DNA of 64,000 nt, taken from Pomacea canaliculata (lineage: Eukaryota). The position numbers were made by a program, and so were the translations under genes. The notes beneath the pieces are model-generated. The model ran no database searches and was not told the origin of the DNA. It saw nothing but the letters and a program-made list of their open reading frames with translations. Below, piece after piece: positions 546 through 20,214 of the stretch. The first letter of the stretch is position 1. Each line of letters opens with the position of its first letter. The stretch lies in contig NC_037595.1 of the NCBI RefSeq assembly GCF_003073045.1, positions 8,572,345 through 8,636,344 on the forward strand. The letters are read 5' to 3'.

Positions 546-2923
546 GTCAGGGCTGTGATCCTGTTTCGCGGCCATACCTGAGATTGTCATTTTGATTTTT
601 GAAATTCATATACTACGGAGTGATTTTTAGGCCTTGGTGGTCCGCCATATTTTGTACTTAAGTAAAGTGGTCCGTGGTCCGAAATACTTTAGAACCATTG
701 GACTAGGCGTTGGACCGGTTTACTGTGCCTACCCGGACACGCAAACACGCAAAACACAAAACACGCAAAAAGACTTCTTACACTCCGTACCTGGTTGTGT
801 TGGTATCGATCAGTGAAGAAAGAATAGGTGAACAGCAACTAATTTATGTTATCCATACACGCATTCTGAAAACTTTCCTCACTCACTCTCTTTCGTTATT
901 CACGCTCTTTCATCTGTTTTTTTTTTAAATATCATTTTCTCGCTCTAGCTATAAACTTCATTTTTTTTAAATTATAAAATGCGAATGAAAAAAAATCCCC
1001 CCCCCCCAGGGTCCCATATATAATGCCTTATCCAACTTGGTTAAGTGGCGCGAACATCAAACAACTGCCACACACAAACTCATTACTAATTTCATTACTA
1101 ATAAAATGAAATATTAAGAAGGCTGCAAGAAATCTGCGTAACAGCATGTGAAGAAAGCCTAATGTCTGCACTGAGAGGACATTTTGTCCAAAACAACAGC
1201 AACCTTCTCATAACTCCAAGACACACTAACTGCATATACAGTAATCTAATGGCAACTGAAACCAATCCTACAGAAATAGTTCTGAGAGGAGATTCTCAGA
1301 TCTAGATTTTGAGAAGCCTTTCATGTATTTGTTAACTTGTGCTCTAATCCTTCTCTGATGAGCGTGGTATTCTGCATTGCATTTGGACATGGAATTAATA
1401 AATAAATATTATATTTACTTTAGAGTATATATATATATAAGTTAAATAAACGTTCTGTATTGTACGTACATATCGGTTCCCTGTGCGGGGATGTATCGTC
1501 GCTATCCGTCTGCAAATAATTTTAAAAAAGTCTTAATTAACGTGTCTAGGCATCCATATGAGTGTGGGTACATTAAATGAACTGAACCTGATCCTAAAGA
1601 AAAAATTTTGCACTTGGCTTGTACTTCAAACTGACCAGAAGCCAAGCTTTTTTTTATAAAAAATAAAGACATTATACATGTGCATATTTTAACCTACTAT
1701 TATAAGAACACCCATATAACACACCAATGATTTATGGAAGACAAGCAGAGTAGAAAATAAGACTACCAAATTAAAACTGTCACAAAGAAAGCAAAAAACA
1801 GAGATCCCTATCTCCACAGGCAGACAGTTGATGAGAGATTTCTTCAAATTAAAAAAGTATTAGATTTCATCCTTCTTTTGATTCTTTTTCCCCTCTTGGG
1901 GAGGGGAGGATCCCTACCCCCGGGAGATGGCTCATCTATGTTTATCTGCAAATAATTTAAAAAAGACTTAATTAATGTGTCTAGGAGGCGGGCGTGAATT
2001 CTCCTGCTCTGGTGACTGTAATGACTGCTCTTGGTAATTGTCTGCTGTTGTGAACGGAAGTGTTTCTCAACAGTATTTACACACAGGGTGTGTATTTTCG
2101 ATCAGTTCTAATTGCATGAAGTCCCTTTTGGGAATTATTGTTGTCCTCTGTTGACTGGAAGTGTTTTTGAACACTTCTTACGCATACAGCGTGTATTTCA
2201 AGCTCCAATTTCATGAGCTCCCTTTGTGGAAGCTTTTTAATTATGCTGGTTATCACCTGAAAAAACATTCATATAAAATGGCGATTCTTTTCGTCTTTTG
2301 AATACAAATTTAGGTACGTTCAAAATATATATATATACTGAATAAGAAAGCGATCCTGTTTCGCGGGCCTACCTCTAAATCTTACTGTAAGGATTTTTCT
2401 GGCGGCGCAGGTAGCTCTTCTCCTCCGGCCGAAGGAAGCTCTTCTCGTCCGGCCGAAGGTAGCCCTTCTCCTCCGCTATCACTTTGCCCGGCGGTTGCAG
2501 AACCACGTCGTTGTCGTTGTCGATATATGATTAACACTTATATTCCCAATTCCACAATCCTAAGGAATCAGCACCCTTCCATTTCAGATCTAGTTACATA
2601 CAAATATCATCATACACAGAAGGAGGTCAACAACACTGAAAGCATACGAAAACTTTTTTCAACTCTAGGAAAAAAAACAAACTATGTGTACCAAGCTACC
2701 TTCTAAATGGCATACAAAAGTAATGTCATACAGAGTTAACCTTTCCTATTGTAGAATCAAACTGCAATTTTTTTCAGCTGTTGTGCATTTTTAAATATCG
2801 TTGCATTTTCTTTTTATACCTTACAAGATTAATATTTTGTGATCCACTGTGTACATATTTCTTGCTTTGCTTCATTTAATAACATATCTATAATACCGAC
2901 AACTCTCGGAATTACATTTCCTC

Positions 2924-3257
2924 CTACCTCCTCGGCTTCTTTTCCTGTCTGCGCCTCCATGCTTTGCGGCGGTTTGCAAACCATCTCTGGAAGGAAGAAC
3001 CACAATGTTAATACGTGTCTCTGAAATCAGGGCTGTTTAGTTAACAACTAGTGGACTAGGCGTTGGACTGATTTACTGCGCCTTCCCGGACAGTGGTTTC
3101 TGGCAGTCCAGTCCTTCTTTCCAGCGCTTCGCGGTCAGCCACCCCGGGTAGCGATTTCTTCGGAATTCCCTTTCCAGGGTGCGCAGCTGGTCAGGCCGGA
3201 ATTGTATCCGTGGCCTTCGCACCCTCTGTGGCTGTACACGAGCGCTGTCGGTGGGTC
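2924..3257 (-). CDS. Type D paired-like homeobox gene (partial; no ATG in this exon). Exon 1 at 3082-3257, ~95-nt intron at 2987-3081 with a GC rather than GT donor, exon 2 at 2924-2986.
   Basis: Minus-strand translation gives '..PTDSARVQPQRVRRPRIQFRPDQLRTLEREFRRNRYPGWLTAKRWKEGLDCQKPLSGK' followed by 'RWFANRRKAWRRRQEKKPRR*'. These are the canonical PRD-like helix-1 motif 'QL..LE..F..NRYP' and the helix-3 motif 'WF.NRR.K.WR+R'. An acceptor 'gtgtgtcgcag|GACC' lies just upstream, so a 5' exon is expected. The helix 2-3 region is one residue longer than canonical. Confidence 0.55.
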
Positions 3258-5099
3258 CTGCGACACACGGGCAGACAAGGCGTCAGGATATGTGTAGATG
3301 AATAAGATGTAATAAGACGCCACTTAAAGAGGCTTGTTTATCCAATTTTTCTTTCTTGGGTCTCAGGAAGGGGAGATGAAGCTTTTTCGGCAGCTTGATA
3401 TTGAAGCACGGTTTGGTGGCATATTTGTTGTTCTGGCCTTAACGTCACAATTGTGAAGCTGTCCTGCCAGTCTCCACCCCCAAGTCCCTGACGCGCTTCT
3501 AGAGTTGGATAAATTTCTTGCGAGGACGCTAACATGTTTAGTTTGCTACTGTCATCTTGCACCAGTTGCATGTGATCACACCACGAACTCTACACACTTT
3601 CAGATTTTAGCGGTAAATCTTGGACAAGAATTACGAATGCTGAAAACATAGAAACAAATAGAAGAGTCAGATCTCTCAAGAAAAGCACTTACTAAACAAA
3701 AGATGATGAAACATTTATTGACAACTCACACTTATAGTCTTTAGGTAAAGAAACAATACAAATAAAACAGAAAAAATGCAAAATAAGTCAGGGAAGACGT
3801 TTACACAAAAGATGGTTATTGATGCACATGTTTAAGTACTCACGTGGTTCTGGTTCCGCCTGCTCTCGCCGGAAAAGCTAGGACATTTGAGCATGCGTAC
3901 GCGATCGAACCAGAGCTGTTGCTCCGGTCCAAATCGAACGGATTCTGAAATGATACAAGTAGTGTAACTCCATAACTTCATTTTTCTGTTGTCTCCTCAT
4001 ATTACGTTAGCTTTTCTAGTTTAAACAACTAAAAACACAAACAAACAAAATTATTACTTATGCTTAGAATATCATTTTAGGGACAATTAAATGTTAATTC
4101 TGTGACAAGTCCTTTTGAAAGGGAATAAATCGTATCTCCACACTGAAGTGAAGCATTCCGGTCCTCCCACTTATGTTCCGAATTCGAGTTAAAAACGATA
4201 ATTATTAATTCAAACTCTAAAGACTGAGGTTTTTTAAATCTATCGTCATAAGAGATATTAGCATATGAAAATGTAGTAAGGGTTCCACCGCAGTGAAATG
4301 TACTTTTACTCACATATTCAGAAATGGCATTTTTATCCTGGCTTCAATCTTTCCACTCTTCCAGCTACAAGGCTCTCTGGGCAATGTACAGTAATCGTTA
4401 TACTTCATTTTTACGTCATTCATACAGGCAGTGCAGTTTATTCGTAATTTGATTGCATTGACATATATCATATCAAGCGGCAGATGCATTTGACAATATT
4501 CTGGAACATTTTTTCCATACAACTAGTCCATATCTCTCTGACCTCAGACATACAGGTTTTCGAGAAACCTTAGCCAGATTTAGACGAATCTTGTGTCATA
4601 AATTTAGGTACTTTAAACAGCAGTTCTCTATGCAATTTGTTATATTACTGTGATGAGATCTACTGGGAACCAGCTGTACCTGTCTTCTGGGGAGGGGCCG
4701 TTGGCTCTCTCGGATGAGAAGCATTGAATTTCTTTAAAAACTCGTAGCATACATTATGTAGCTTCATGTGGATATCCAATAAAATCTCCTCAGGTAAAAC
4801 TTCAGTGATAGATCTAAGAAGTCTGAAGAAATGCCTGTTTTCTTTCTTTTTCTTTATCCAATTCCTCCCCCCTCCCTTGGGTAGGGAAAGACCACTCCCC
4901 CCTATCACAGGGGGTAATGTACATATTAGTGCACTCCCATCCATCCCTGTGTACAATATCTCCCACACACACGTGTTATCAATTTAATTAATTCACTGTC
5001 CTTAATAGTATCTTTACAAATCGAGCTAATCTGCTTTTCATAGCTTACAAGAGTGATGCAGCTCAATGTCTTTTTAGATTCCAATAACGCTTCGTTGCG

Positions 5100-5142
5100 A
5101 ACCAGCGCTGGAAAGGAAGAACCACAATGTTAATACGGTCTC
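5100..5142 (-). pseudogene. Degenerate homeobox exon-2 fragment ('RWFATKRYWNLKRH*') with a truncated intron element
   Basis: Minus strand shows 'ttcctttccag|CGCTGGTTCGCAACGAAGCGTTATTGG...TGA'. This is homologous to the type C exon 2. Homeodomain N51 is replaced by T/K. Confidence 0.4.
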
Positions 5143-5979
5143 CTTGTAGTGCTGTAATAATAACGTCGCAGCCGTTTTCGATATATGATTAACACATATA
5201 TTCCCAATTCCACAATCCTAAGGAATCACCACCCTTCCATTTCAGATATATTTACATACAAATATCATCATGCACAGAAGGAGGTCAACAACGCTGAAAG
5301 CATACGAAAACTTTTTTTGAACACTAGGAAAAAAAATTATGTGTACCAAGGTACCTTCTAAATGTTATACAAAAGTATGGAAGTCTGGAAGGTAGAACCA
5401 GAATATTAATACGTGTCTCTGAAGTCAGGGCTGTTTAATTAACAACTAGTGGTCTAGGCATTATAACTGTTTACTGTGCCTACCTCGACTTGTTTTTGAG
5501 ATAGTCGGGTTCTTCCTGCGAGGGTTTGTCTGCTTGATACTGGAGGAAATTTGCATTTTTTGAAGTAATCCTCCAATATCTTTTTTTGCCACCTCTTGAT
5601 ATTTCTTCGCCGGGGCCTCCGTCTGGCCGGTGGTTCTGTGATATGAAGGTGCAGCCAAGGCTTCAGGATGTTTGTAACGTTTTAGGAAGAGTGTGTTAAA
5701 TGTGTATGCGAGCGTGTGTGAACATCTACATGTCAACCACGCTCACCGCACTCTTTCACCTTTCACCTCTCGCGGACACATACACGCACACAGTTTTCTT
5801 ATTATTATGTCATTCATATAAAATGGCGATTCTTTTCGTCTTTTGAATACAAATTTACGTACATTCAAAAGAAAAAAAATATAGTGAATACGAAAGCGAT
5901 CCTGTTTCGCGTCCCTACCTGACAGAGTTATTTGGATCTTTTTGGCTTTTCCTCTTTTTTGAGGACGGGCGTCAGCAGC

Positions 5980-6159: not shown

Positions 6160-8640
6160 CGTCGCCGCCGCCGTTGTCGATATATGGCCTACCTCTCAAT
6201 CTTACTGTAAGGATTTTTCTGGCGGCGTAGGTAACCCTTCTCCGGCCGAAGGTAGCTCTTCTCCTCCGCCATCACTTTGCCCGGCGGTTGCAGAACCACG
6301 TCGTTGTCGTTGTCGATATATGATTAACACATATATTCCCAATTCCACAATCCTAAGGAATCACCACCCTTCCATTTCAGATATATTTACATACAAATAT
6401 CATCATGCACAGAAGGAGGTCAACAACGCTGAAAGCATACGAAAACTTTTTTTGAACTCTAGGAAAAAAAATTATGTGTACCAAGGTAACTTCTAAATGG
6501 CATACAAAAGTAATGTCATACAGAGTTAAGCTTTCCTATTGTAGAATCAAACTGCAATGTTTTTAAGCTGTTGTGCATTTTTAAATATTGTTACATTTTC
6601 TTTTTATACCTTACAAGATTAATATTTTGTGATCCACTCAGTACTTGTACATATTTCTTGCTTTGCTTAATTTAATAACATATCTATAATACCGACAACT
6701 CTCGGAATTACATTTCCTCTGACCTCATCGTCCTCGAGGTCATTCATTGTTGTCTGCACCGCCTTTGGGCCCTGCTGTTTCAAACCATCTTTCAATGTGA
6801 CGCCTGGACAGGCCTGTACGTCGTGCAAGTGTTGCTCTGGTTGAACGTCGGGGAAATTTCGTCTGCTAGAATTGGTCTTCCAAAATTCTCCTTTGCCATG
6901 GTTGTATTCTTCTTATTATTATTATTGATCTTCTTCCGGCTGGTGGTTCTGCGAAATGAAGGGCAGACAAGGCTTCAGGATGTGTGTGTCGATGAATAAG
7001 ATGTAATAAGACGCCACTTAAAGAGGCTTGTTTATCCAATTTTTCTTTCTTGGGTCTCCAGGAAGGGGAGATGAAGCTTTTTCGGCAGCTTGATATTGAA
7101 GGACGGTTTGCTGGCATATTTTATGTACTTGCAGATGGAGATCTTGAAGAATCTCCACTGGAAGTGTTGAAGTCAGACTTTAGCGGTAAATCTTGGACAA
7201 GAATTACGAATGCTGAAAACATAGAAACAAACAAAAGAGTCAGATCTCTCAAGAAAAGCACTTACAAAACAAAAGATGATGAAACATTTATTGACAACTC
7301 ACACTTATAGTCTTTAGGTCAAGAAACAATACAAATAAAACAGAAAAAATGGAAAAATAAGTAAGGGAATACGTTTACACAAAAGATGGTGATTGATGCA
7401 CACAACTCGATCACTCACTCCAGAGCCTGTTAAAGTACTCACGTGTTTCTGGATGGGCCAATGGCTGAAGTAGTAGTATTTTTAAGCAGAGTAACGCTTC
7501 ACTGTCTCATAGACGCTAAAAATTAGCTAAAATATTAGCTGAGACAGAATTGCACACTAAATTGTGACGAAACGAGGCGGTGTAATTCAAACTCTGAAGA
7601 CTGATGTTTTTTAAATCTATCGTCATAAGAGATATTAGCATATGAACATGTAGTAGGAGTTCGCTCTCACTTTCCACTTACGCCGCAGTGAAATGTACTT
7701 TTACTCACGAATTATTATTTGGTATTGCTGTGGGAGCTTTTTCGGCCTGCCTGCCTGCCTCCAGATATCGTCCTCACGGTACCTCGCTCTTTGTTACGTC
7801 ATTCATACACGCATTCTGAAAACGTTGGTCACTTACACTCTTCCGTCATTCACGCTCTTTCATCCTTGCACGCGCGCTCATTCCTTCCACGATATAAAAA
7901 TGTTAGAGGGCATTTTATTCGTAATTTGATTGCATTGACATATATCATATCAAGCGGCAGATGTATTTGACAATATTCTGGAACATTTTTTCCATACAAC
8001 TAGTCCATATCTCTCTGACCTCAGACATACAGGTTTTCGAGAAACCTTAGCCAGATTTAGACGAATCTTGTGTCATAAATTTAGGTACTTTAAACAGCAG
8101 TTCTCTATGCAATTTGTTATATTACTGTGATGAGATCTACTGGGAACCAGCTGTACCTGTCTTCTTGGGAGGGGCCGTTGGCTCTCTCGGATGAGAAGCA
8201 TTGAATTTCTTTAAAAACTCGTAGCATACATTATGTAGCTTCATGTGGATATCCAATAAAATCTCCTCAGGTAAAAACTTCAGTGATAGATCTAAGAAGT
8301 CTGAAGAAATGCCTGTTTTCTTTCTTTTTCTTATCCAATTCCTCCCCCTCCCTTGGGTAGGGAAGACCACTCCCCCTATCACAGGGGGTAATGTACATAT
8401 TAGTGCACTCCCATCCATCCCTGTGTACAATATCTCCCACACACACGTGTTATCAATTTAATTAATTCACTGTCCTTAGTAGTATCTTTATAAATCGAGC
8501 TAATCTGCTTTTCATAGCTTACAAGAGTGATGCAGCTCAATGTCCTTTTCGTTCCCAATAGCGCCTGGTTGAGAACCAGCGCTGGAAAAGAAGAACCACA
8601 ATGTTAAAATACGTGTCTCTGAAGTCAAGACTGTTTAGTT
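6160..8640. repeat. Copy 2 of the ~3.6 kb tandem segmental duplication
   Basis: Same blocks as copy 1. Copy 2 carries the intronless homeobox version (see 6795-6960). Confidence 0.75.
6795..6960 (-). pseudogene. Intronless, frame-disrupted paralogue of the type D/B homeobox (degenerate homeodomain)
   Basis: The minus strand reads '..IQPWQRRILEDQF*' and then, in a shifted frame, 'RRNFPDVQPEQHLHDVQACPGVTLKDGLKQQGPK', continuing straight into the exon-2 homologue (AGATGGTTTG...). The ~95-bp intron present in the paralogue at 2987-3081 is absent here. The WF/N51 positions are degenerate. Confidence 0.5.
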
Positions 8641-9248
8641 AACTAGTGGACTAGACACCGGACCTGTTTACCAGGGTTGTCCCTGGGACATATTTTTCTA
8701 TCCCATCCCATCCCATGGCAATTTATGCCTGTCCCATCCCATCCCATCCCATGGGACGTTTCCCATAGTAATAACATTCATATGGACAACACTGCGCATT
8801 GCACACATGTTAACAAAGTCATGGCATAATGAAACTGGAATAAAAAAAGTATTTTTCCTGTGCTTAAAAAGTCTGACAATGCAAATTTCAGCGTAAATTT
8901 ATTTTACAATATCAAGTATCGACTACCATGGGAAATACAAATGTGTGCTGTCCCATCTCATCCCATCCCATGGGACGTTTCCCATGGGATTCCCATGGGA
9001 TTCCCATTCCTATGGACAACACTGCTGTTTACTGTGCCTACCTTTATCCATGGTTGGGTTAGCTTCGTTCTTGTAGACAATAATCTCAGGTCACTGGAAG
9101 TGACGTAGTTACGCTTCTCAAAACTTTTTTCTAGCATCAACTTTTTCCAATCTTTCGGGTTTTTTCTCCTGTGTCGCTGAGGTGTAGGCTGCTGCTGAGG
9201 CTGCTGCTGCTGAGGCTGAGGCTGCTGAGGCTGATTCTCAGGCTGATT
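8537..9248 (-). CDS. Type C divergent homeobox gene. Exon 1 at 9042-9248 is Q-rich; 460-nt intron with an ATCCC pentamer microsatellite; exon 2 at 8537-8581.
   Basis: Acceptor 'tttttctcag|AATCAGCC'. Exon 1 reads 'NQPENQPQQPQPQQQQPQQQPTPQRHRRKNPKDWKKLMLEKSFEKRNYVTSSDLRLLSTRTKLTQPWIK' and ends at donor AAG|GTAGGC. Exon 2 reads 'RWFSTRRYWERKGH*'. Homeodomain positions L16, F20, Y25, L40, I45, W48, F49 and R53 are kept, but position 50 is S and position 51 is T (normally N). Confidence 0.45.
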
Positions 9249-9250
9249 CT
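9042..9250 (-). repeat. CAG/CTG-rich coding microsatellite (polyQ/Pro tract) in type C exon 1
   Basis: Positions 9181-9250 are 'gctgaggctgctgctgctgaggctgaggctgctgaggctgattctcaggctgattctgag', which encodes (Q/P)n on the minus strand. Confidence 0.6.
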
Positions 9251-9317
9251 GAGAAAAAATCAAAATATAACAACTAATCATCAATAAAGCATAGTCACCA
9301 CAAACCAATTCACCTCA

Positions 9318-9346
9318 AAAAAAAAAAAAAAAAAAAAAAAAAATTG
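9318..9346 (+). repeat. Poly(A) run of 29 nt following AATAAA; shorter A-runs at 10582-10595, 12909-12923 and 15236-15258
   Basis: Direct reading. It recurs at every unit boundary. Confidence 0.9.
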
Positions 9347-9576
9347 CGTGTTGCTAAGACTACTCTACATAATCGGGCATTGTCTGTTCACACGTACAAC
9401 CATCTCCTCGAGATAAAAATGTGCGTTTTACACAGCCTGTCCAACAATCTGTTTCATGCAGCAGTAAAGGCCCTTTTTTTTTCACACCTGCCTAGTCACA
9501 GAGGCTCTGACACTTTAGCCGTGCCGGTTTATATTCTTCTCTTTTAGCTGTTGGTCACGGTGCCTTGCTTCGTATG

Positions 9577-10070
9577 CTACTTTGGGAATTCTGATCCGTA
9601 TAGGAGGGTGCTGATGACAGTTGACTGGAAGATTCTCAGCTTGATCTTCTTACTGATGTTTGTTGCCTTCCATGTGCTCCTGAGTGAGGCACGTCTGTTG
9701 GCGAACCACCTCTGGAAAGGAAGAACCAAAATGTTAAAACGTGTCTCTGAAGTCAAGACTGTTTAGTTAACAACTAGGACTAGACACTGAACCTGTTTAC
9801 TGTACCTACCCTAATAAAATCTTTTTCAAATGAGTGTTTCGTGATAGGTCTGCGAGGACTTTTGGTGTTACATACTGATTTTTCTTAAATTCTTTCTTCA
9901 GCCATCGTCGAAGAGTTCGTCTTGGTTGTCGTCTTTGCGGTCTGTTCTGTTGTGGTCTAATTAATTGTCGCTGCTGTCTCTCTATTTCTGGCTGTTGATG
10001 CTGGTGTCCAACAAGCCACCTCACGCCTGCTCTTAATGCGTCGTACAATGCCCGAAGGCAAAATTTCATC
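9577..10070 (-). pseudogene. Type A homeobox copy, frameshifted. Exon 2 at 9577-9711, intron, exon 1 at 9806-10070.
   Basis: Exon 1 reads 'MKFCLRALYDALRAGVRWLVGHQHQQPEIERQQRQLIRPQQNRPQRRQPRRTLRRWLKKEFKKNQYVTPKVLADLSRNTHLKKILLG*'. Relative to the intact copies it has a 3-residue deletion in helix 1 and a 1-nt deletion that places a TAG at the donor. Confidence 0.6.
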
Positions 10071-10195
10071 CTGAAATGATAAAGCAGAATGAGTGAGTCA
10101 GTGAGCTGGTGTACGGAAAATTTTAGTTTTTACACGTTTATTTTGTGTAATTCTTCAATGGGTTAGACTCGTACAAATTAAAAAAAAATGTTCAA

Positions 10196-10595
10196 AATCA
10201 AAAAAATCAAATCAAAACCAACTTTATTGTCTGTCGAGGATACCCAGGACAGAAATTTATCTTCGCTCACAAGGGCAGGCATACATATACAGACATTTAA
10301 GACACAGCAGTAAAAACTAGAAGTGCATCTACTTACCTCTAGTTAACTAAGTAACTAAACACAGTAAACACACTACACCTTAAAAAAGATAAAATGTAGA
10401 AATACATTTTCTACATCACCCTTCCTCCGGGGGAAAAATTGTGCCTGCTAAGGCACAATAAATACAAATCCATCCGATAGCCAAAACGATTAGTACACAT
10501 GCCCAAATGTATAGCACAGCCAAAAATCAAAATATAACAACTAATCATCAATAAAGCATAGTCACCACAAACCAATTCACCTCAAAAAAAAAAAA
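10196..10595 (+). mobile_element. SINE-like, poly(A)-terminated ~400-bp module. It is present in every array unit (also at 12518-12923 and 14858-15258; partial at 11490-11770, 13846-14100 and 16125-16205).
   Basis: The 5' ~100 bp is 'ATCAAATCAAAAC.AACTTTATTGTCTGTCGAGGATACCCAGGACAGAAATTTGTCTTCGCTCACAAGGGCAGGCATACATATACAG', which also occurs at 29372-29470. It is followed by two hairpins and then 'AATAAAGCATAGTCACCACAAACCAATTCACCTC' plus A(10-29). I see no clear tRNA-type A/B boxes. Confidence 0.45.
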
Positions 10596-10872
10596 TAAAT
10601 AATAATGTGTTGCTAAGACTACTCTACATAATCGGGCATTGTCTGTTCACACGTACAACCATCTCCTCGAGATAAAAATGTGCGTTTTACACAGCCTGTC
10701 CAACAATCTGTTTCATGCAGCAGTAAAGGCCCTTTTTTTTCACACCTGCCTAGTCACAGAGGCTCTGACACTTTAGCCGTGCCGGTTTATAATCTTCTCT
10801 TTTTGCTGTTGGTCACGTGCCGGTTTATATTCTTCTCTTTTTGCTGTTGGTCACGGTGCCTTGCTTCGTATG

Positions 10873-11366
10873 CTACTTTGGGAATTCTGATCCGTAAAGG
10901 AGGGTGCTGATGACAGTTGACTGGAAGATTCTCAGCTTGATCTTCTTACTGATGTTTGTTGCCTTCCATGTGCTCCTGAGTGAGGCACGTCTGTTGGCGA
11001 ACCACCTCTGGAAAGGAAGAACCAAAATGTTAAAACGTGTCTCTGAAGTCAAGACTGTTTAGTTAACAACTAGGACTAGACACTGAACCTGTTTACTGTA
11101 CCTACCCTAATAAAATCTTTTTCAAATGAGTGTTTCGTGATAGGTCTGCGAGGACTTTTGGTGTTACATAGTGATTTTTCTTAAATTCTTTCTTCAGCCA
11201 TCGTCGAAGAGTTCGTCTTGGTTGTCGTCTTTGCGGTCTGTTCTGTTGTGGTCTAATTAATTGTCGCTGCTGTCTCTCTATTTCTGGCTGTTGATGCTGG
11301 TGTCCAACAAGCCACCTCACGCCTGCTTTTAATGTGTCGTACACTGCCCGAAGGCAAAATTCCATC
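10873..11366 (-). pseudogene. Type A homeobox copy carrying the same frameshift and deletion as the 9577-10070 copy
   Basis: Exon 1 at 11102-11366 reads 'MEFCLRAVYDTLKAGVRWLVGHQHQQ...HLKKILLG*'. Exon 2 at 10873-11007. The two copies share their lesions. Confidence 0.6.
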
Positions 11367-11903
11367 CTGAAATGATAAAGCAGAATGAGTGAGTCAGTGA
11401 GCTGGTGTACGGAAAATTTTAGTTTTTACACGTTTATTTTGTGTAATTCTTCAATGGGTTAGACTCGTACAAATTAAAAAAAAATGTTCAAAATCAAAAA
11501 AATCAAATCAAAACCAACTTTATTGTCTGTCGAGGATACCCAGGACAGAAATTTGTCTTCGCTCACAAGGGCAGGCATACATATACAGACATTTAAGACA
11601 CAGCAGTAAAAACTAGAAGTGCATCTACTTACCTCTAGTTAACTAAGTAACTAAACACAGTAAACACACTACACCTTAAAAAAGATAAAATGTAGAAAAT
11701 ACATTTTCTACATCACCCCTTCCTCCGGGGAAAAAATTGTGCCTTAGCAGGCACAATTTTTTCGAAATACAAATCCATCCGATAGCCAAAACGACAACAG
11801 AATAACAACAGAACAAGAACAGTAAATCCACACACACCACCCTGTGAAATATCCATGCATATACATTCACTCCTCTGCCTTACAACAGTGATGGCCAACC
11901 TTG

Positions 11904-12396
11904 CTAGTGTTGGCGCCTACGAATTGCGGCACGCCTGTTGGTAAACCATGTCTGGAAAGGAAGAACCAAAATGTTAACACGTGTCTCTCAAGTCAAGACT
12001 GTTTAGTTAACAACTAGGACTAGACACCGAGCCTGTTTACTGTGCTTACCCTTATCCATATATAACTCAGATGGGTATGTCTTGAAATAGTGGCGACGAC
12101 TTCTGCAGTCGCATATTGATTTATATTAAATTGATCTTTGAGGATGGTTGACTGCCATGGTTTAAGTATTTGTCTTCTAGGCTGTTGTCTTCTTCTTTGA
12201 TTACGTATTCTGGGTTGTTGATTTCTTCGTCGTCTTTGTCTTAGATTTAAGATGTTCTAAGTCTTCTTTGTCTTTGTTCCTGTCTCCTTTCTCGTCTAAT
12301 TATTTGTTGATTGGCTGGCTGTTGTTGGCGATGCCAATGACGTATTGAATTCCGGCTTTGACAGCTTGGAAAGCAGCTCTGAGGATGTATTCCATA
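11904..12396 (-). pseudogene. Type B homeobox copy with a frameshift in exon 1
   Basis: This is 95%+ identical to the intact type B gene at 14213-14710, but has a 3-nt deletion (cttcttcttc becomes cttcttc) and a 1-nt deletion (atgcccaatgacg becomes atgccaatgacg). No ORF of 60 aa or more is called here. Confidence 0.6.
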
Positions 12397-13198
12397 CTGA
12401 AATGATAAAGCAGAATGAGTGGAGTCAGTGAGCTGGTGTACGGAAAATTTAGTTTTTACACGTTTATTTTGTGTAATTCTTCAATGGGTTAACTCGTACA
12501 AATTAAAAAAAATGTTCAAAATCAAAAAAATCAAATCAAAACAAACTTTATGTCTGTCGAGGATACCCAGGACAGAAATTTGTCTTCGCTCACAAGGGCA
12601 GCATACATATACAGACATTTAAGACACAGCAGTAAAACTAGAAGTGCATCTACTTACCTCTAGTTAACTAAGTAACTAAACACAGTAAACACACTACACC
12701 TTAAAAAAGATAAAATGTAGAAAATACATTTTCTACATCACCCCTTCCTCCGGGGGAAAAATTGTGCCTGCTAAGGCACAATTTTTTCGAAAATACAAAT
12801 CCATCGATAGCCAAAACGATTAGTACACATGCCCAAATGTATAGCACAGCCAAAAATCAAAATATAACAACTAATCATCATAAAGCATAGTCACCACAAA
12901 CAATTCACCTCAAAAAAAAAATAAATAATAATGTGTTGCTAAGACTACTCTACATAATCGGGCATTGTCTGTTCACACGTACAACCATCTCCTCGAGATA
13001 AAAATGTGCGTTTTACACAGCCTGTCCAACAATCTGTTTCATGCAGCAGTAAAGGCCCTTTTTTTTCACACCTGCCTAGTCACAGAGGCTCTGACACTTT
13101 AGCCGTGCCGGTTTATAATCTTCTCTTTTTGCTGTTGGTCACGTGCCGGTTTATATTCTTCTCTTTTTGCTGTTGGTCACGGTGCCTTGCTTCGTATG

Positions 13199-13714
13199 CT
13201 ACTTTGGGAATTCTGATCCGTATAGGAGGGTGCTGATGACAGTTGACTGGAAGATTCTCAGCTTGATCTTCTTACTGATGTTTGTTGCCTTCCATGTGCT
13301 CCTGAGTGAGGCACGTCTGTTGGCGAACCACCTCTGGAAAGGAAGAACCAAAATGTTAAAACGTGTCTCTGAAGTCAAGACTGTTTAGTTAACAACTAGG
13401 ACTAGACACTGAACCTGTTTACTGTGCTTACCTTAATAAAATCTTTCTTGAGGTGAGTTTCTTGAGATAGGTCTGCGAGGACTTCTGATGTTACGTACTC
13501 GGACTTCTTAAACTCTCTCTTCAGCATTTTCTTTTGCCATCGTCCAAGAGTTCGTCTTGGTTGTCGTCTTTGTTGTCTTTGCGGTCTGTTCTGTTGTGGT
13601 CTAATTAATTGTCGCTGCTGTCTCTCTATTTCTGGCTGTTGATGCTGGTGTCCAACAAGCCATCTGACGCCTGCTCTTAATGCGTCGTAAACCGCCCGAA
13701 GGGAAAATTCCATC
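13199..13714 (-). CDS. Type A PRD-like homeobox gene, intact. Exon 1 at 13432-13714 with ATG at 13713, 98-nt intron, exon 2 at 13199-13333. ~138 aa.
   Basis: Exon 1 reads 'MEFSLRAVYDALRAGVRWLVGHQHQQPEIERQQRQLIRPQQNRPQRQQRRQPRRTLGRWQKKMLKREFKKSEYVTSEVLADLSQETHLKKDFIK'. Donor is AAG|GTAAGC, acceptor is ttcctttccag|AGGTGG. Exon 2 reads 'RWFANRRASLRSTWKATNISKKIKLRIFQSTVISTLLYGSEFPK*'. The homeodomain is a perfect 60 residues with R5, L16, F20, Y25, L40, I45, W48, F49, N51 and R53, and the intron sits exactly between residues 46 and 47. An acceptor lies immediately 5' of the ATG (tttatcatttcag|G ATG), suggesting a non-coding 5' exon. Confidence 0.7.
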
Positions 13715-14212
13715 CTGAAATGATAAAGCAGAATGAGTGAGTCAGTGAGCTGGTGTACGGAAAATTTTAGTTTTTACACGTTTATTTTGTGTAATTCTTC
13801 AATGGGTTAGACTCGTACAAATTAAAAAAAAAATGTTCAAAATCAAAAAAATCAAATCAAAACCAACTTTATTGTCCGTCGAGGATACCCAGGACAGAAA
13901 TTTGTCTTCGCTCACAAGGGCAGGCATACATATACAGACATTTAAGACACAGCAGTAAAAACTAGAAGTGCATCTACTTACCTCTAGTTAACTAAGTAAC
14001 TAAACACAGTAAACACACTACACCTTAAAAAAGATAAAATGTAGAAAATACATTTTCTACATCACCCCTTCCTCCGGGGGAAAAATTGTGCCTGCTAAAA
14101 CGACAACAGAATAACAACAGAACAAGAACAGTAAATCCACACACACCACCCTGTGAAATATCCATGCATATACATTCACTCCTCTGCCTTACAACAGTGA
14201 TGGCCAACCTTG

Positions 14213-14710
14213 CTAGTGTTGGCGCCTACGAATTGCGGCACGCCTGTTGGTAAACCATGTCTGGAAAGGAAGAACCAAAATGTTAACACGTGTCTCTCAA
14301 GTCAAGACTGTTTAGTTAACAACTAGGACTAGACACCGAGCCTGTTTACTGTGCTTACCCTTATCCATATATAACTCAGATGGGTATGTCTTGAAATAGT
14401 GGCGACGACTTCTGCAGTCGCATATTGATTTATATTAAATTGATCTTTGAGGATGGTTGACTGCCATGGTTTAAGTATTTGTCTTCTAGGCTGTTGTCTT
14501 CTTCTTCTTTGATTACGTATTCTGGGTTGTTGATTTCTTCGTCGTCTTTGTCTTAGATTTAAGATGTTCCTAAGTCTTCTTTGTCTTTGTTCCTGTCTCC
14601 TTTCTCGTCTAATTATTTGTTGATTGGCTGGCTGTTGTTGGCGATGCCCAATGACGTATTGAATTCCGGCTTTGACAGCTTGGAAAGCAGCTCTGAGGAT
14701 GTATTCCATA
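14213..14710 (-). CDS. Type B PRD-like homeobox gene, intact. Exon 1 at 14359-14710, intron, exon 2 at 14213-14260. ~132 aa.
   Basis: Exon 1 reads 'MEYILRAAFQAVKAGIQYVIGHRQQQ...QPRRQILKPWQSTILKDQFNINQYATAEVVATISRHTHLSYIWIR'. Exon 2 reads 'TWFTNRRAAIRRRQH*'. The homeodomain is 60 residues and aligns with the canonical homeodomain without gaps (F20, N23, Y25, T27, L40, I45, W48, F49, N51, R52, R53). Position 50 is T. The intron is at 46/47. Confidence 0.75.
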
Positions 14711-15487
14711 CTGAAATGATAAAGCAGAATGAGTGAGTCAGTGAGCTGGTGTACGGAAAATTTTAGTTTTTACACGTTTATTTTGTGTAATTCTTCAATG
14801 GGTTAGACTCGTACAAATTAAAAAAAAATGTTCAAAATCAAAAAAATCAAATCAAAACAAACTTTATTGTCTGTCGAGGATACCCAGGACAGAAATTTGT
14901 CTTCGCTCACAAGGGCAGGCATACATATACAGACATTTAAGACACAGCAGTAAAAACTAGAAGTGCATCTACTTACCTCTAGTTAACTAAGTAACTAAAC
15001 ACAGTAAAACACACTACACCTTAAAAAAAGATAAAATGTAGAAAATACATTTTCTACATCACCCCTTCCTCCGGGGGAAAAATTGTGCCTGCTAAGGCAC
15101 AATTTTTTCGAAATACAAATCCATCCGATAGCCAAAACGATTAGTACACATGCCCAAATGTATAGCACAGCCAAAAATCAAAATATAACAACTAATCATC
15201 AATAAAGCATAGTCACCACAAACCAATTCACCTCAAAAAAAAAAAAAAATAATAATAATGTGTTGCTAAGACTACTCTACATAATCGGGCATTGTCTGTT
15301 CACACGTACAACCATCTCCTCGAGATAAAAATGTGCGTTTTACACAGCCTGTCCAACAATCTGTTTCATGCAGCAGTAAAGGCCCTTTTTTTTCACACCT
15401 GCCTAGTCACTGAGGCTCTGACACTTCAGCCGTGCCGGTTTATATTCTTCTCTTTTTGCTGTTGGTCACGGTGCCTTGCTTCGTATG

Positions 15488-15994
15488 CTACTTTGGGAAT
15501 TCTGATCCGTAAAGGAGGGTGCTGATGACAGTTGACTGGAAGATTCTCAGCTTGATCTTCTTACTGATGTTTGTTGCCTTCCATGTGCTCCTGAGTGAGG
15601 CACGTCTGTTGGCGAACCACCTCTGGAAAGGAAGAACCAAAATGTTAAAACGTGTCTCTGAAGTCAAGACTGTTTAGTTAACAACTAGGACTAGACACTG
15701 AACCTGTTTACTGTGCCTACCTTCATAAAAACTTTCTTCAAACGAGTGTTTCGTGATAGGTCTGCGAGGACTTCTGATGTTACGTACTGGGACTTCTTAA
15801 ACTCTCTCTTCAACATTTTCTTTTGCCATCGTCGAAGAGTTCGTCTTGGTTGTCGTCTTTGCGGTCTGTTCTGTTGTGGTCTAATTAATTGTCGCTGCTG
15901 TCTCTCTATTTCTGACTGTTGATAACGGTGTCCTAGAAGCCACCTGACGCCTGCTCTTAATGCGTCGTACACTGCCCGAAGGCAAAATTCCATC
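15488..15994 (-). CDS. Type A PRD-like homeobox gene, second intact copy. Exon 1 at 15721-15994, exon 2 at 15488-15622.
   Basis: Exon 1 reads 'MEFCLRAVYDALRAGVRWLLGHRYQQSEIERQQRQLIRPQQNRPQRRQPRRTLRRWQKKMLKREFKKSQYVTSEVLADLSRNTRLKKVFMK'. Donor is AAG|GTAGGC. Exon 2 is identical to the 13199 copy (RWFANRRASLRS...LLYGSEFPK*). Confidence 0.7.
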
Positions 15995-17479
15995 CTGAAA
16001 TGATAAAGCAGAATGAGTGAGTCAGTGAGCTGGTGTACGGAAAATTTTAGTTTTTACACGTTTATTTTGTGTAATTCTTCAATGGGTTAGACTCGTACAA
16101 ATTAAAAAAATGTTCAAAATTAAAAAAAAAATCAAATCAAAACAAACTTTATTGTCTGTCGAGGATACCCAGGACAGAAATTTGTCTTTGCTCACAAGGG
16201 CAGGCATTTAAATCAACATTTAACACACACAGTTAGGAGTAGAGATACAAGTTACTCACTTTTCAAAAGCTTCACATGGAAGGGCAAGCTTCAAAATGCA
16301 CTCATACCGACCTTGCGTGACGTAGTAAGAGCATGACGTCCGGCGCTGCTATCGCTGCTATCGTCATCGGGAGAAGGCCTTGACGTTACCCGCGAACCAA
16401 AAAAAAAAAAAAAAACCCAACCTGAAAAATGTCGTCTGCTGCAGCTACCTTTCTAATATAGGAGCGTCCCCAAGCGCTGATCAGGCAGGCCTAGAACAAA
16501 AGTATGACATGCCACATATCACCCTCCCAAAGACGAAGCAACGCGGAAAATATACTTGACAATATATATGAAATAATAATGATATTGAAGAATTCATATA
16601 GTGCAATTCTCTACTTAACAGAAGGTAACTTAAAAATGCAAGCACAAAATGACAGACACAAAATTGTTATATCACACGTACTGACACTGACTAAAACATA
16701 GCAGCAAACAAACAGAGACATCAACAGGCAAAAGTACAAGACAGATGTAGCACTCTAGTAGTAGTATAGTAATTAGTTGACAAAACTACGTACCTCGTTC
16801 TTTGTTGAGTGGTTCAGTGGTTCAGTCACTGCTTGTGCAAAAGTTTGTAGTTTTCCTGCAGTAAGTTAGTACCGTAGCAGCTCAACCAGAAGGCTGACAG
16901 GAAGATAGGACCTCTCGTCAAGAATCGAACTCCCAGCGAGGTATGCAGACGCTGTGTTTTCTAGTGTTGCTGAATTAGGAGGAAGAAGGCCTCATTGTTT
17001 CTAGCTCTAGACTCATCTCTCCTCCTCCTCCTCCTGCTCCATCTCCTCTTCCTCCTCCTAGGTGGAGAGTCATTATCATGGGGCTTTTCCTGCAAATAAT
17101 TAAAAAAAAAGACTTAATCTGTCTAGGCATGGTTTACCTTTTCTGCTGGCTCTATTCTGAACCAGCTGAACATGGGTCCTAGGAAGGCGCCGTTTGCTCT
17201 CTTGGATGAGAATCAAAATCAATATAAATCCGTTTTCTCAGGTAAACAATAACATTGTCACACTTTCAGAGTACAAAATAAGACTAACAAAGTAAAACTG
17301 TCACAAAGAAAGCAAAAGCAACATTAAATGCTTTTCCTGAGCAGACAGTACTCCCAAGCATGCAAAGTAAAGACAGCCGTCAGGTTTTATAGCTTTTTTT
17401 TCCCCCAGGCTGTACATAAAATTAGAAGCAACATGAAGGAAGTACCTTTCCAAATTTAGCATGCCATCTCCATTTCCTC

Positions 17480-17770
17480 CCACGTTTTGCCATCCTGACA
17501 CCATATCAAGAAAAATGTCACTTCAAAATTATAAAATATTATATCGGAAACATTTAAGAATTTAAAGGCAGCCAAAGGACCACATATGCCTTAAACCAAA
17601 CGCAATGACTACATTTCTATGCAAGCCAATACCTTTGAAGATAACATTCTGCTTTTAACACCAAACCCTTCATCTCTGTAAAATGTGTAACTATACTCTC
17701 TCCAGTATAACTTCCCTTTGTAAACTATTGTGAAGGAAAAAGGTTGGCGCAAGCTTTTTCAGCAATGCAA
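17480..17770. repeat. ~290-bp direct repeat; second copy at 18693-18975, ~1.2 kb apart
   Basis: 'ccatcctgacaccatatcaagaaaaatgtcacttcaaaattataaaatatta.atcggaaacatttaagaatttaaaggcagccaaaggacca.atatgcctta.accaaacgcaatgactacatttctatgcaagcca.tacctttgaagataacattctgcttttaacacc...ggttggcgcaagcttttt' is more than 95% identical at both sites. The adjacent 'gagaatcaaaatcaatataaatc' motif is also duplicated at 17205 and 18345. Confidence 0.8.
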
Positions 17771-20214
17771 AAAAAAAAAAAATTAGTTTGTCGATGCTCT
17801 TCCTTAAATATTTTTTGGCAGCTGAACAGGATTCATGAACAGATCATTGTGTGATTATTGATGTACATTCATATTTTTCTCCTCCATCCTACACCACTAA
17901 CACTTAAATTTTTTTATATTATTATTTGATTGTTCAGTTTGTATTGGTGGATATATGCACACCCACATATTTTGTCAGGTAAGGTGACCTGTGCAGGACC
18001 CAAAAAATGCGAGTTACCCACTTCTGTACAAAGGAGTGAAATTTTCACCACTTGTGAATAAGTTGTGTGTTTCAAGTAGAGGAAACTTAAATGTATGAAT
18101 GCTTTTACTTTTAATGTAACAAAATTGCTCTTCCTGTGTCTTTTTAAAAATTGCATTTTTCTTCAAATTTTTTTTGAGGATGTTTCCATTTGCCCCAAAC
18201 ATTTTTTTTCGGCAAGATTTATTTTTCTTCATGAAGTAAAGTATCACTGTATTGTAAACTTTGGGATTTATTATAAAAGTTAATAAATAAATTAAAAAAT
18301 GTTTATATCAGTGATTTTGTGTGCGTGTATGTGTCCGCGAGAGGGAGAATCAAAATCAATATAAATCAGAGTTTTCGACATGCAAACAATAACATTGTCC
18401 CACTTTCAGCACTCTTTGCTTTTCTTTAATAAAAAAAGGAGGGGGAGAATTGGCTACAAACAGTATGGCTGGGGCATGCTGATTACTCTGCTATTGTGTA
18501 AAGCAAGAAATGTTTGGGTTTTTCCTTTGCTCATACGTAGTTGTCCTAGCACCGTATACTAACATCTTTTCATTTGTTAACAATGATGGCTGACCTATGT
18601 ATATCATGTGACTAATTTCTATTTTTTAAAATTTTATTTACTTTAATGCAAATACAATGAGCAATTATACTAAACAGTAACTTTGCTAACCCTGAGCCAT
18701 CCTGACACCATATCAAGAAAAACGTCGCTTCAAAATTATAAAATATTAGATCGGAAACATTTAAGAATTTAAAGGCAGCCAAAGGACCATATATGCCTTA
18801 TACCAAACGCAATGACTACATTTCTATGCAAGCCATTACCTTTGAAGATAACATTCTGCTTTTAACACCAAACCCTTCATCTCTGTAAAATGTGTAACTA
18901 TACTCTCTCCAGTATAACTTCCCTTTGTAAACTATTGTGAAGGAAAAAGGTTGGCGCAAGCTTTTTACAGCAATGAAGAGGTTAAGATATAAAGTTGGCT
19001 GGACAGACTTTGTTATTATTATTAGGTCAGACTATAAACTTCAGGGGTGGGGAGCTTTTTTTTTCCTCCAAGTTCGGGGTAAACAATCTTTCCATCCCAA
19101 AATCCTTTTTGTACACACATTTCACAGCCATAATAGCCGGAATGACCTTTCACTTGCTTTACAAACGCACGAGCAGGTGTATCACAGATAAAACAAGACA
19201 AATTAATCTCTACACTCTGAGGGATACCGGCTTATAGTTCCACTGGCCCCTGCTGTAATTCTGTCATATCCCTTACAAAGTCTTGTAAAAACATATTAAT
19301 ATCTTCGGGTTTTCTATCCCCACAGTACAAGCCAATTACAAAAGGGTCAGTTTCTACAGGACTATATATTCTCCCCAGAATAGGCCAAAACTGATTACAT
19401 GAGGAATGAAAGAGTGGCAGACCATCGATATTTACTTGTATATATAATAGGTTTCAGAATTTGTGGCCATTATATTTTTCAGAAATAATACTCCACAAAA
19501 AACTGGATGGGAAGAAGAGAAAGTATCCATCAGATACAAAGATGCAAATGCATACACACACATTGGATGATAACACTCCATATACTTGGTGTTTTATTTT
19601 TTTATTTGCTGTTCAATCTTCAACAAAAAATGAATTTTTTATCATATTGTGCCCCTGCAAACTGGTGACCAGACTACAGTGAAGAAATAAGAAAAATTAA
19701 ATACTTTAGGTAACGAAGATTGTCAAAAATAAACTTAAAGAATTGTGCTCTTGAATAATTAAGAGAGGAAGACCATAAAATTAACAACAGTATGAAGGAA
19801 AGGAGAGAAGCATAATTAATTGAGAAAAGTTGTTTGATGACTGATGACTAAAAATGATGTGGGACAACTGATGCATGTTGAGGACTGCTGACAATGTTGA
19901 TCTACAGTATGTTGGTGTGAACAAAGTGGATAAACGACATCAGATTCTGCCAAAATCCATTACTTTTCAGCATGAAAGTCTTTACATGTAATTTGTAACA
20001 CCTTGTCTTCGCTTCATCACAATTAAAAATAGTGGAGTATAAAAATAAAAATTAAGATCAAGTATATATGCCAATTCTTGTATCATAGGCATCAGTGAGG
20101 TAGTATAATTATTGCAATCTTTTCATAAAAACAAAATTCTACTTAGCTCTTAACAGTCATTTTTGTCATAGTCTGTTGCAGACAGGGCTAGCTTTGTTAT
20201 TCATTAGTCCTCAT

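Follow-up and report, generated by a model that had tools for sequence, protein, structure and literature searches.

The window analysed here, a stretch of 64,000 nucleotides (nt) with ~38% G+C from the snail Pomacea canaliculata (NCBI RefSeq assembly GCF_003073045.1, contig NC_037595.1, positions 8,572,345 to 8,636,344 of the forward strand), holds, from 2.5 to 16 kb, an array of at least ten homeobox loci, every one of which lies on the minus strand. The array is densely packed in units of ~1.3 kb, and seven of its copies, named by position as D, B, A, B', A', A'' and C, fall within the interval 8537-15994, where a first-pass annotation of this DNA had pointed to odd residues at homeodomain positions 50 and 51 as a sign of relaxed or shifted DNA-binding specificity across the array. 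We consider it probable, though well short of settled, that this interval is the core of a lineage-restricted, young and partly decayed tandem array of small PRD-LIKE homeobox genes with an inherited small residue at position 50. The seven copies are:

15488-15993, minus strand: copy D, intact; exon 1 15721-15993, intron 15623-15720, exon 2 15488-15622 (RWFANRR, a retrotransposon-derived tail and a stop; Ala50 15611-15613, Asn51 15608-15610); Pfam Homeodomain E 1.3e-8.
14213-14709, minus strand: copy B, intact and free of retrotransposon sequence; exon 1 14359-14709, intron 14261-14358, exon 2 14213-14260 (TWFTNRRAAIRRRQH, stop; Thr50 14249-14251, Asn51 14246-14248); Pfam Homeodomain E 1.5e-10.
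13199-13713, minus strand: copy A, intact; exon 1 13432-13713, intron 13334-13431, exon 2 13199-13333 (RWFANRR and a retrotransposon-derived tail; Ala50 13322-13324); Pfam E 2.1e-11.
11904-12395, minus strand: copy B', a near-identical duplicate of B that encodes WFTNRR and is frameshifted.
10874-11365, minus strand: copy A', a likely pseudogene.
9578-10069, minus strand: copy A'', carrying both of the lesions of A'.
8537-9248, minus strand: copy C; homeodomain exon 9042-9248, exon 2 8537-8581 (RWFSTRRYWERKGH, stop; Ser50 8570-8572, Thr51 8567-8569); Pfam E 3.7e-7.

The gene models and class features of these copies were read directly from the DNA, and their architecture is largely common to all. 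Exon 1 of D, B, A, B', A' and A'' starts at an ATG immediately 3' of an acceptor-like TTTCAG; the homeodomain exon of C follows an acceptor-like site and has no ATG. Homeodomain codon 46 ends exon 1 and is followed by a GT donor in every copy except a paralogue outside the interval, c3240, in which the donor reads GA. The intron is 98 nt long in those six copies and ~460 nt in C, and its 3' end is a polypyrimidine tract and an AG acceptor that in all copies directly precedes codon 47, with which exon 2 opens. All copies thereby have a phase-0 intron between homeodomain codons 46 and 47, which is the typical splice position of PRD-LIKE genes (Katayama et al., PMC6258689).

All six spliced models passed the Pfam Homeodomain profile (PF00046; gathering cut-off 22.9 bits), scoring 30.3-54 bits over profile positions 1-57. 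An AlphaFold2 model of copy A has three helices, with a predicted local distance difference test (pLDDT) score of ~95 for the homeodomain and of 77-89 for the tail, and its helix 3 runs unbroken through the retrotransposon-derived tail. Homeodomain structures accounted for all of the best 50 Protein Data Bank matches listed by Foldseek for this model, the best being engrailed Q50A on DNA (1DU0; target-normalised template modelling score 0.96, root-mean-square deviation 0.5 A, 38% identity). Structural modelling, which the first-pass annotation had proposed for the interface of helix 3 with DNA, returned a confident homeodomain whose nearest structure is an Ala50 protein on DNA, and also one in which the end of helix 3 is of retrotransposon origin.

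Two other class assignments were considered and rejected. Membership of the PRD (Pax) class was discarded as there was no PAIRED-domain match in any modelled protein, the genes are 130-140 codons long and Ser50 is found only in C. The TALE superclass (IRO, MKX) was discarded as the homeodomain has 60 and not 63 residues, with no insertion in the helix 1-2 loop; matches of the modelled proteins to Homeobox_KN were under threshold. The best solved-structure relatives of c3240 are DUX4, Pax6, Pitx2, Aristaless and ALX4 (E 1e-19 to 1e-10). The Gln or Lys at position 50 that is the norm in PRD-LIKE genes is replaced by Ala, Thr, Ser or Cys, though this residue is a typical feature of the class and not a defining one.

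Residues were numbered by counting back from Trp48, and since Leu16, Phe20 and Tyr25 then fall at their canonical positions, the residues under discussion occupy positions 50 and 51. The odd residues listed in the first-pass annotation were all recovered by a six-frame scan, with every motif on the minus strand: WFANRR four times in the interval (15602-15619, 13313-13330, 10987-11004 and 9691-9708, in D, A, A' and A'', respectively), WFTNRR twice (14240-14257 in B and 11931-11948 in B') and WFSTRR once (8561-8578 in C). This also held for Thr51, which had been reported for C and for degenerate fragments at 5100-5142, the latter corresponding to RWFATKR at 5087-5107. Beyond the interval, WFANRR occurs at 2966-2983 and WFCNRR at 6281-6298 and 2488-2505. 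In total there are 10 WFxxRR matches in the window, where 40 first-order Markov simulations gave an expectation of 0.23 and a maximum of 2, a count to be read as one of duplicates and not of independent events. The members of the array outside the interval are:

2930-3240, minus strand: paralogue c3240, with the homeodomain RRPRIQFRPDQLRTLEREFRRNRYPGVADREALERRTGLPETTVR / RWFANRRKAWRRRQ; the least diverged of the array and near-canonical paired-like.
5066-5636, minus strand: paralogue c5640; homeodomain exon 5484-5636.
5066-5110, minus strand: c5108, the helix-3 exon of c5640 (RWFATKRYWNLKRH, stop), with Ala50, Thr51 and Lys52.
6776-6913, minus strand: degenerate homeodomain remnant, intronless and with an in-frame stop.
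6278-6313 and 2485-2520, minus strand: orphan TWFCNRRAK-stop segments.

Copies A/D and c3240 all encode RWFANRR, though their codons 47-53 differ at 5-6 nucleotides and Ala50 is GCC in the former and GCA in the latter. As RWFANRR was kept while synonymous sites became saturated between A and c3240, Ala50 appears to be the ancestral state of the family and to have been under constraint at one time, with Thr, Ser and Cys being derived. The Thr50 codon (ACC) is a single transition away from that of Ala50 (GCC). Every state of position 50 in the array is a small residue (Ala, Thr, Ser or Cys), and the intact genes show only two of them, Ala and Thr. Positions 47 and 54 are non-canonical as well, the former being Arg or Thr and the latter Ala, Lys or Tyr. 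Thr51 is restricted to C and c5108, the most decayed copies, both of which look degenerate, belong to one 3.5-kb duplication and have a helix-3 continuation that is shorter than, and different from, that of the other copies (RYWERKGH and RYWNLKRH). These two copies are probably pseudogenes or remnants that do not bind DNA.

How unusual these residues are depends on the homeodomains with which they are compared. At position 50, the PRD-LIKE families of Drosophila carry Gln or Lys and Pax proteins carry Ser, although Ala50 occurs naturally in the IRO, MKX and human HNF1A homeodomains (PMC4901127 Table 1) and is thus not unprecedented, and engrailed Q50A has been crystallised on DNA. Among 713 homeodomains from the top 150 matches, position 50 was Gln in 219, Ser in 100, Arg in 76, Lys in 57, Ala in 42 and Thr in 40, and position 51 was Asn in 360, Asp in 83 and Thr in 26; Ala50 and Thr50 thus make up ~6% each and Asn51 only half of a sample that is skewed to divergent multi-homeodomain proteins, and the counts show only how common each residue is in fast-evolving homeodomains. 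Ala50 and Thr50 are therefore atypical relative to conserved paired-like families, ordinary relative to fast-evolving homeodomains and compatible with DNA binding. On the replacement of Asn51 by Thr the first-pass annotation was borne out, as Asn51 is a highly conserved DNA contact (PMC3460184) that is lost in C and c5108.

A feature that the first-pass annotation overlooked is that in all four WFANRR copies everything past Arg53 is a fragment of the open reading frame (ORF) of a retrotransposon of the long interspersed nuclear element type, namely of the DUF6451 region that follows the reverse transcriptase:

15500-15601, minus strand: fragment of a non-long-terminal-repeat retrotransposon ORF, 102 nt, in frame, encoding homeodomain residues 54-60 and the tail (ASLRSTWKATNISKKIKLRIFQSTVISTLLYGSE).
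13211-13312, 10885-10986 and 9589-9690, minus strand: identical 102-nt fragments.

The junction is directly visible in the DNA. The fragment has 88% amino-acid identity over 34 residues to residues 106-139 of the Pomacea canaliculata protein P0001 (tblastn E 1e-13), whose domains are the end of RVT_1 and then DUF6451, and 80% nucleotide identity over 101 nt to two European Nucleotide Archive contigs (L001 and L002), with the match beginning exactly at codon 54, for which GCC is common to the native and the retrotransposon sequence. The Pfam score of the fragment itself for DUF6451 (PF20049) is 25.7-26.2 bits, just below the cut-off of 28 bits. Copy B, which lacks the fragment, continues with AAIRRRQH and a stop, whereas residues 54-60 in A/D read ASLRSTW, without the usual Lys55. 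The retrotransposon-derived end of helix 3 in A/D would be expected to matter for DNA binding no less than residue 50 does.

Searches for relatives returned little beyond generic homeodomains. Copy A, copy B and an alignment of six homeodomains from the array had no word-indexed match among 5.8 billion proteins except through the retrotransposon tail. A full HMMER search of 1.84 billion representatives found 15,003 generic homeodomain proteins, with multi-homeodomain proteins on top, and none of the matches listed from it exceeded 50% identity to any copy. Look-ups of the exact products of the exon-1 ORFs and of P0001 found no record, neither the conserved intron sequence nor exon 1 of A had a match in metagenome scans, and no such array is described in the papers on mollusc homeobox repertoires.

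The copies differ considerably in their coding status, which could be read directly from the frames as assembled. Only D, B and A have an uninterrupted homeodomain after splicing, with open frames of 132-138 codons and consensus GT/AG splice sites. Two lesions are common to A' and A'', namely the loss of 12 nt in helix 1 and of 1 nt just ahead of the donor, and their WFANRR exon is out of frame as a result. In exon 1 of B', two deletions of 1 nt and one of 3 nt leave the assembled sequence frameshifted, so that in three of the seven interval copies (A', A'' and B') the motif cannot be encoded in frame. The case of B' is peculiar in that over ~860 nt (unit 11640-12690) its differences from B consist of 11 indel events, with not one substitution, a pattern of unpolished long-read consensus which suggests that its indels are local assembly or polishing errors, or that the unit was falsely duplicated, rather than true frameshifts. 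The lesions of c3240 are a 1-nt deletion and the change of its donor from GT to GA.

Substitution patterns in exon 1, counted by the Nei-Gojobori method for pairs of paralogues, point to past constraint. The ratio of non-synonymous to synonymous divergence (dN/dS) was <1 in every comparison having synonymous changes, with values of 0.45 for D versus A and 0.37 for A versus A' (Fisher p 0.008), and for B versus A the proportions of non-synonymous (pN) and synonymous (pS) differences were 0.36 and 0.77, respectively. The comparison of A' with A'', however, had five non-synonymous and no synonymous changes. The dN/dS analysis across paralogues that had been proposed in the first-pass annotation is thus consistent with purifying selection for most of the family's history, from which A' and A'' look to have been released. 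Comparisons between paralogues with few sites show past constraint and not present function.

The foremost alternative is that the whole array is dead, consisting of untranscribed pseudogenes in which residues 50 and 51 reflect neutral decay. We regard this as unlikely, yet it has to be taken seriously, as it would account for the three interval copies that are out of frame, the missing start codon of C, the lost donor of c3240, the replacement of the end of the recognition helix by a retrotransposon fragment in four copies, the want of any annotated homologue among the 5.8 billion proteins and the five-to-zero excess of non-synonymous changes between A' and A''. It sits poorly with pN being far below pS for B versus A, with the retention of RWFANRR between A and c3240 despite synonymous saturation, and with the frames and splice sites still present in D, A and B, although all of these signals speak of past constraint only and not of present function.

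Under the reading of a young, partly decayed PRD-LIKE array, what its members do with DNA can be sketched as follows, in terms of expression, binding and specificity that we infer from the sequence. The family would have inherited a small, uncharged residue at position 50. Its intact members (B and A/D) keep Arg5, Trp48, Phe49, Asn51 and Arg53, and most likely would still engage a TAAT-type core by means of Asn51 and the N-terminal arm, while the two bases 3' of that core would go without side-chain read-out, as in engrailed Q50A. That engrailed variant reportedly keeps near wild-type binding to TAATTA. The outcome would be either binding of low specificity, or specificity that comes from residue 47 (Arg or Thr), residue 54 or partner proteins. 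Family-wide loss of the 3' base read-out is graded here as likely, and it is likewise likely that DNA is no longer bound by the copies with Thr51, C and c5108, which would lack the contact of Asn51 with adenine and appear structurally degenerate. About half of the copies are dead as assembled, as expected of a birth-and-death array.

Several observations weigh against this reading. The best matches of A and B are engrailed, HESX1 and NANOG at weak E values of 1e-5 to 1e-11, and the class cannot be assigned by sequence similarity alone. Constraint is read solely from paralogues in one window, with no orthologue or annotated homologue in the collections searched, the synonymous and non-synonymous counts are small with several Fisher tests being marginal, and dN/dS could be distorted by gene conversion or by an atypical mutation process acting on exon 1. 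Finally, as ASLRSTW lacks the backbone contact of Lys55, even the intact copies A and D may bind DNA poorly.

A second aspect of the array is that its exon 1 sequences are far more divergent than their surroundings. Over 9300-16250 (minus strand), divergence of exon 1 is 10-20x that of introns and spacers, synonymous sites included. Between B and A, 119 of 282 aligned exon-1 sites are mismatched, with a further 69 gap columns (58% identical), whereas the upstream 250 nt and the intron together have 7 mismatches in 347 sites (Fisher p 5e-40), being 98.8% and 96% identical, respectively. For A versus A' the corresponding counts are 28 of 260 and 3 of 347 (Fisher p 4e-8), and the synonymous sites taken by themselves also depart from the non-coding rate (p 2e-10). 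At either edge, the divergent island stops no more than a few nucleotides from a splice site. Exon 2 of A/D, with the retrotransposon piece counted in, resembles the non-coding scaffold in having an identity of 99-100%. The 98-nt intron retains 86% identity (83 of 97 aligned sites) even in comparisons with c3240 and c5640, while the homeodomain exon of c5640 has ~50% identity to that of A, which is near saturation. Among the intron paralogues (15623-15720, 13334-13431, 14261-14358, 2987-3087 and 5385-5484), 72 of ~100 columns are invariant.

This contrast may reflect exon-specific evolution, in which introns and spacers are held at 96-100% identity while exon 1, comprising the N-terminal motif and helices 1-2, diverges 10-20x faster; we rate this as doubtful, though as a lead the contrast is more interesting than the odd residues themselves. 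Three candidate processes could underlie it. Selection might keep the homeodomain exons distinct within a concertedly evolving array, as at major histocompatibility complex loci; exon 1 might be overwritten repeatedly by conversion from diverged outside donors; or exon 1 might be the target of hypermutation of the kind proposed for the conotoxin genes of gastropods. If exon-specific evolution were true, A/D and B would differ at residues 47 and 50 as part of a maintained repertoire of DNA-binding variants, and the contrast, if real, would bear on how tandem families retain functional diversity under concerted evolution.

Two further explanations of these patterns were examined and set aside. 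Structured RNA as the reason for the conservation of the intron was rejected, with a folding z-score of 0.23, no compensatory pairs and no Rfam hit in the window. Mosaic recombination among exon 1 of D, A, A' and A'' was unsupported, since all site partitions fit one tree, though the variable sites are strongly clustered.

That the members gained new and distinct specificities, with Ala50, Thr50 and Ser50 marking a diversifying set of transcription factors, seems to us improbable. The idea draws on the fact that positions 47, 50 and 54, which chiefly set the 3' specificity of homeodomains (PMC3460184), all vary in the array, and the excess divergence of exon 1 with its helices 1-2 could reflect diversifying selection. 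However, the intact genes have only Ala50 or Thr50, both of them small and scarcely able to reach the bases, Ala50 has been conserved and not diversified, dN/dS is <1 wherever synonymous changes exist and the copy with Ser50 and Thr51 is degenerate. The proposal of relaxed or shifted specificity survives in part: relaxation is supported as a likely trait of the whole family, whose residue at a main determinant is non-canonical, but a graded shift across a working array is not supported, and variation of specificity from copy to copy was not upheld, with Ala50 ancestral and kept, Thr50 a single transition off, Thr51 confined to one duplication and three of the seven copies out of frame.

Least credible of all is that the odd codons and the frameshifts are artefacts of assembling a tandem repeat, for although repeats of 98-100% identity are prone to misassembly and the indel-only differences between B and B' are typical of unpolished long reads, codons 50-51 recur as GCC AAC in four A/D-type copies and as ACC AAC in two B-type copies and, being identical across independent copies, are not random sequencing errors, the types differ by substitutions and not by indels, and the lesions of A' and A'' are common to two copies that are otherwise five substitutions apart, so that artefacts would explain the frameshifts of B' and perhaps those of c3240, and not residues 50 and 51.

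Some additional features of the array and its neighbourhood are recorded here. A strong donor-like site, GAG/GTAAGTAG, lies ~260 nt 5' of each ATG (13714-13980 and 14710-14980, minus strand), with the TTTCAG acceptor adjoining the ATG, which suggests a non-coding first exon upstream of the ATG; the conserved upstream 250 nt would then be intron. Copies A, B and D have a common N-terminal motif (15928-15993 and its paralogues), MEFCLRAVYDALRAGVRWLVGH in A/D and MEYILRAAFQAVKAGIQYVIGH in B, which is predicted with low confidence to be helical; Pfam had no match to this family motif (MEFCLRAVYDALRAGVRW...), nor did the protein databases searched contain a homologue. In copy C the intron (8582-9041) contains an insertion of ~220 nt that is duplicated as two direct repeats and is rich in CCCATGGGA palindromes. 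A promoter and terminator scan gave the shuffled expectation and is irrelevant to an animal genome. Just outside the array there is a direct repeat, 98% identical and unrelated to the homeobox units (17489-17759 and 18696-18966, 1207 nt apart). A minus-strand ORF at 57491-57874 codes for a portion of the cargo-binding domain of myosin VI (Pfam PF16521, E 1.3e-20), which places a myosin VI gene ~40 kb from the homeobox array.

On their own, the odd residues at positions 50 and 51 are a modest curiosity whose variety is mostly due to shared ancestry or decay. Of wider interest is that this unannotated snail array provides a natural series for how much of helix 3 a homeodomain needs, its states being the ancestral Ala50, the Thr50 of the intact copy B and a recognition helix that ends in retrotransposon sequence. 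Lineage-specific, fast-evolving paired-like arrays are well known in mammals, in which they act at embryonic genome activation and in reproduction. To our knowledge, comparable paired-like arrays are poorly described in molluscs.

The snail array resembles the mammalian ETCHbox, Obox, Rhox and Dux arrays in kind, and is a fast-evolving cluster of an ordinary sort in which only some details are unusual. With the eutherian ETCHbox genes (LEUTX, TPRX, ARGFX and DPRX, and Obox in mouse) it has in common the PRD-LIKE phase-0 intron at codons 46/47 and a short exon that starts just upstream of the homeobox, and residue 50 has occasionally changed in those genes too, as in elephant LEUTX with Asn50 (PMC6258689). 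Like the ETCHbox/Obox, Rhox and Dux clusters, it is a lineage-restricted tandem array with fast divergence, pseudogenes and gene conversion (PMC8208926, PMC4901127). In contrast, those clusters are mammalian and derive from ancestors with Lys50 or Gln50, whereas the snail array is molluscan with Ala50 conserved, and only the latter has the family N-terminal motif MEFCLRAVYDALRAGVRW and a retrotransposon-derived end of helix 3; no similarity between them beyond a generic homeodomain was found. Closer in taxonomy are the oyster genes PRD1-PRD8, which are also lineage-specific, divergent PRD-class genes of a mollusc and are described as being expressed very early or late in development (PMC5322547), although they are not described as a dense array of ~1.3-kb units.

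At the level of the homeodomain itself, the snail copies share Ala50 with IRO and MKX of the TALE superclass and with HNF1A, but differ in having 60 residues without insertion (Pfam positions 1-57) and a PRD-LIKE intron. Engrailed Q50A (1DU0) is like them in both its Ala50 and its homeodomain of 60 residues, and demonstrates that a homeodomain with Ala50 can sit on DNA. Nevertheless, engrailed Q50A was made by engineering a point mutation into an ANTP-class protein whose helix 3 is canonical in other respects, whereas the snail copies have Arg or Thr at position 47 and, in A and D, non-canonical residues 55-60.

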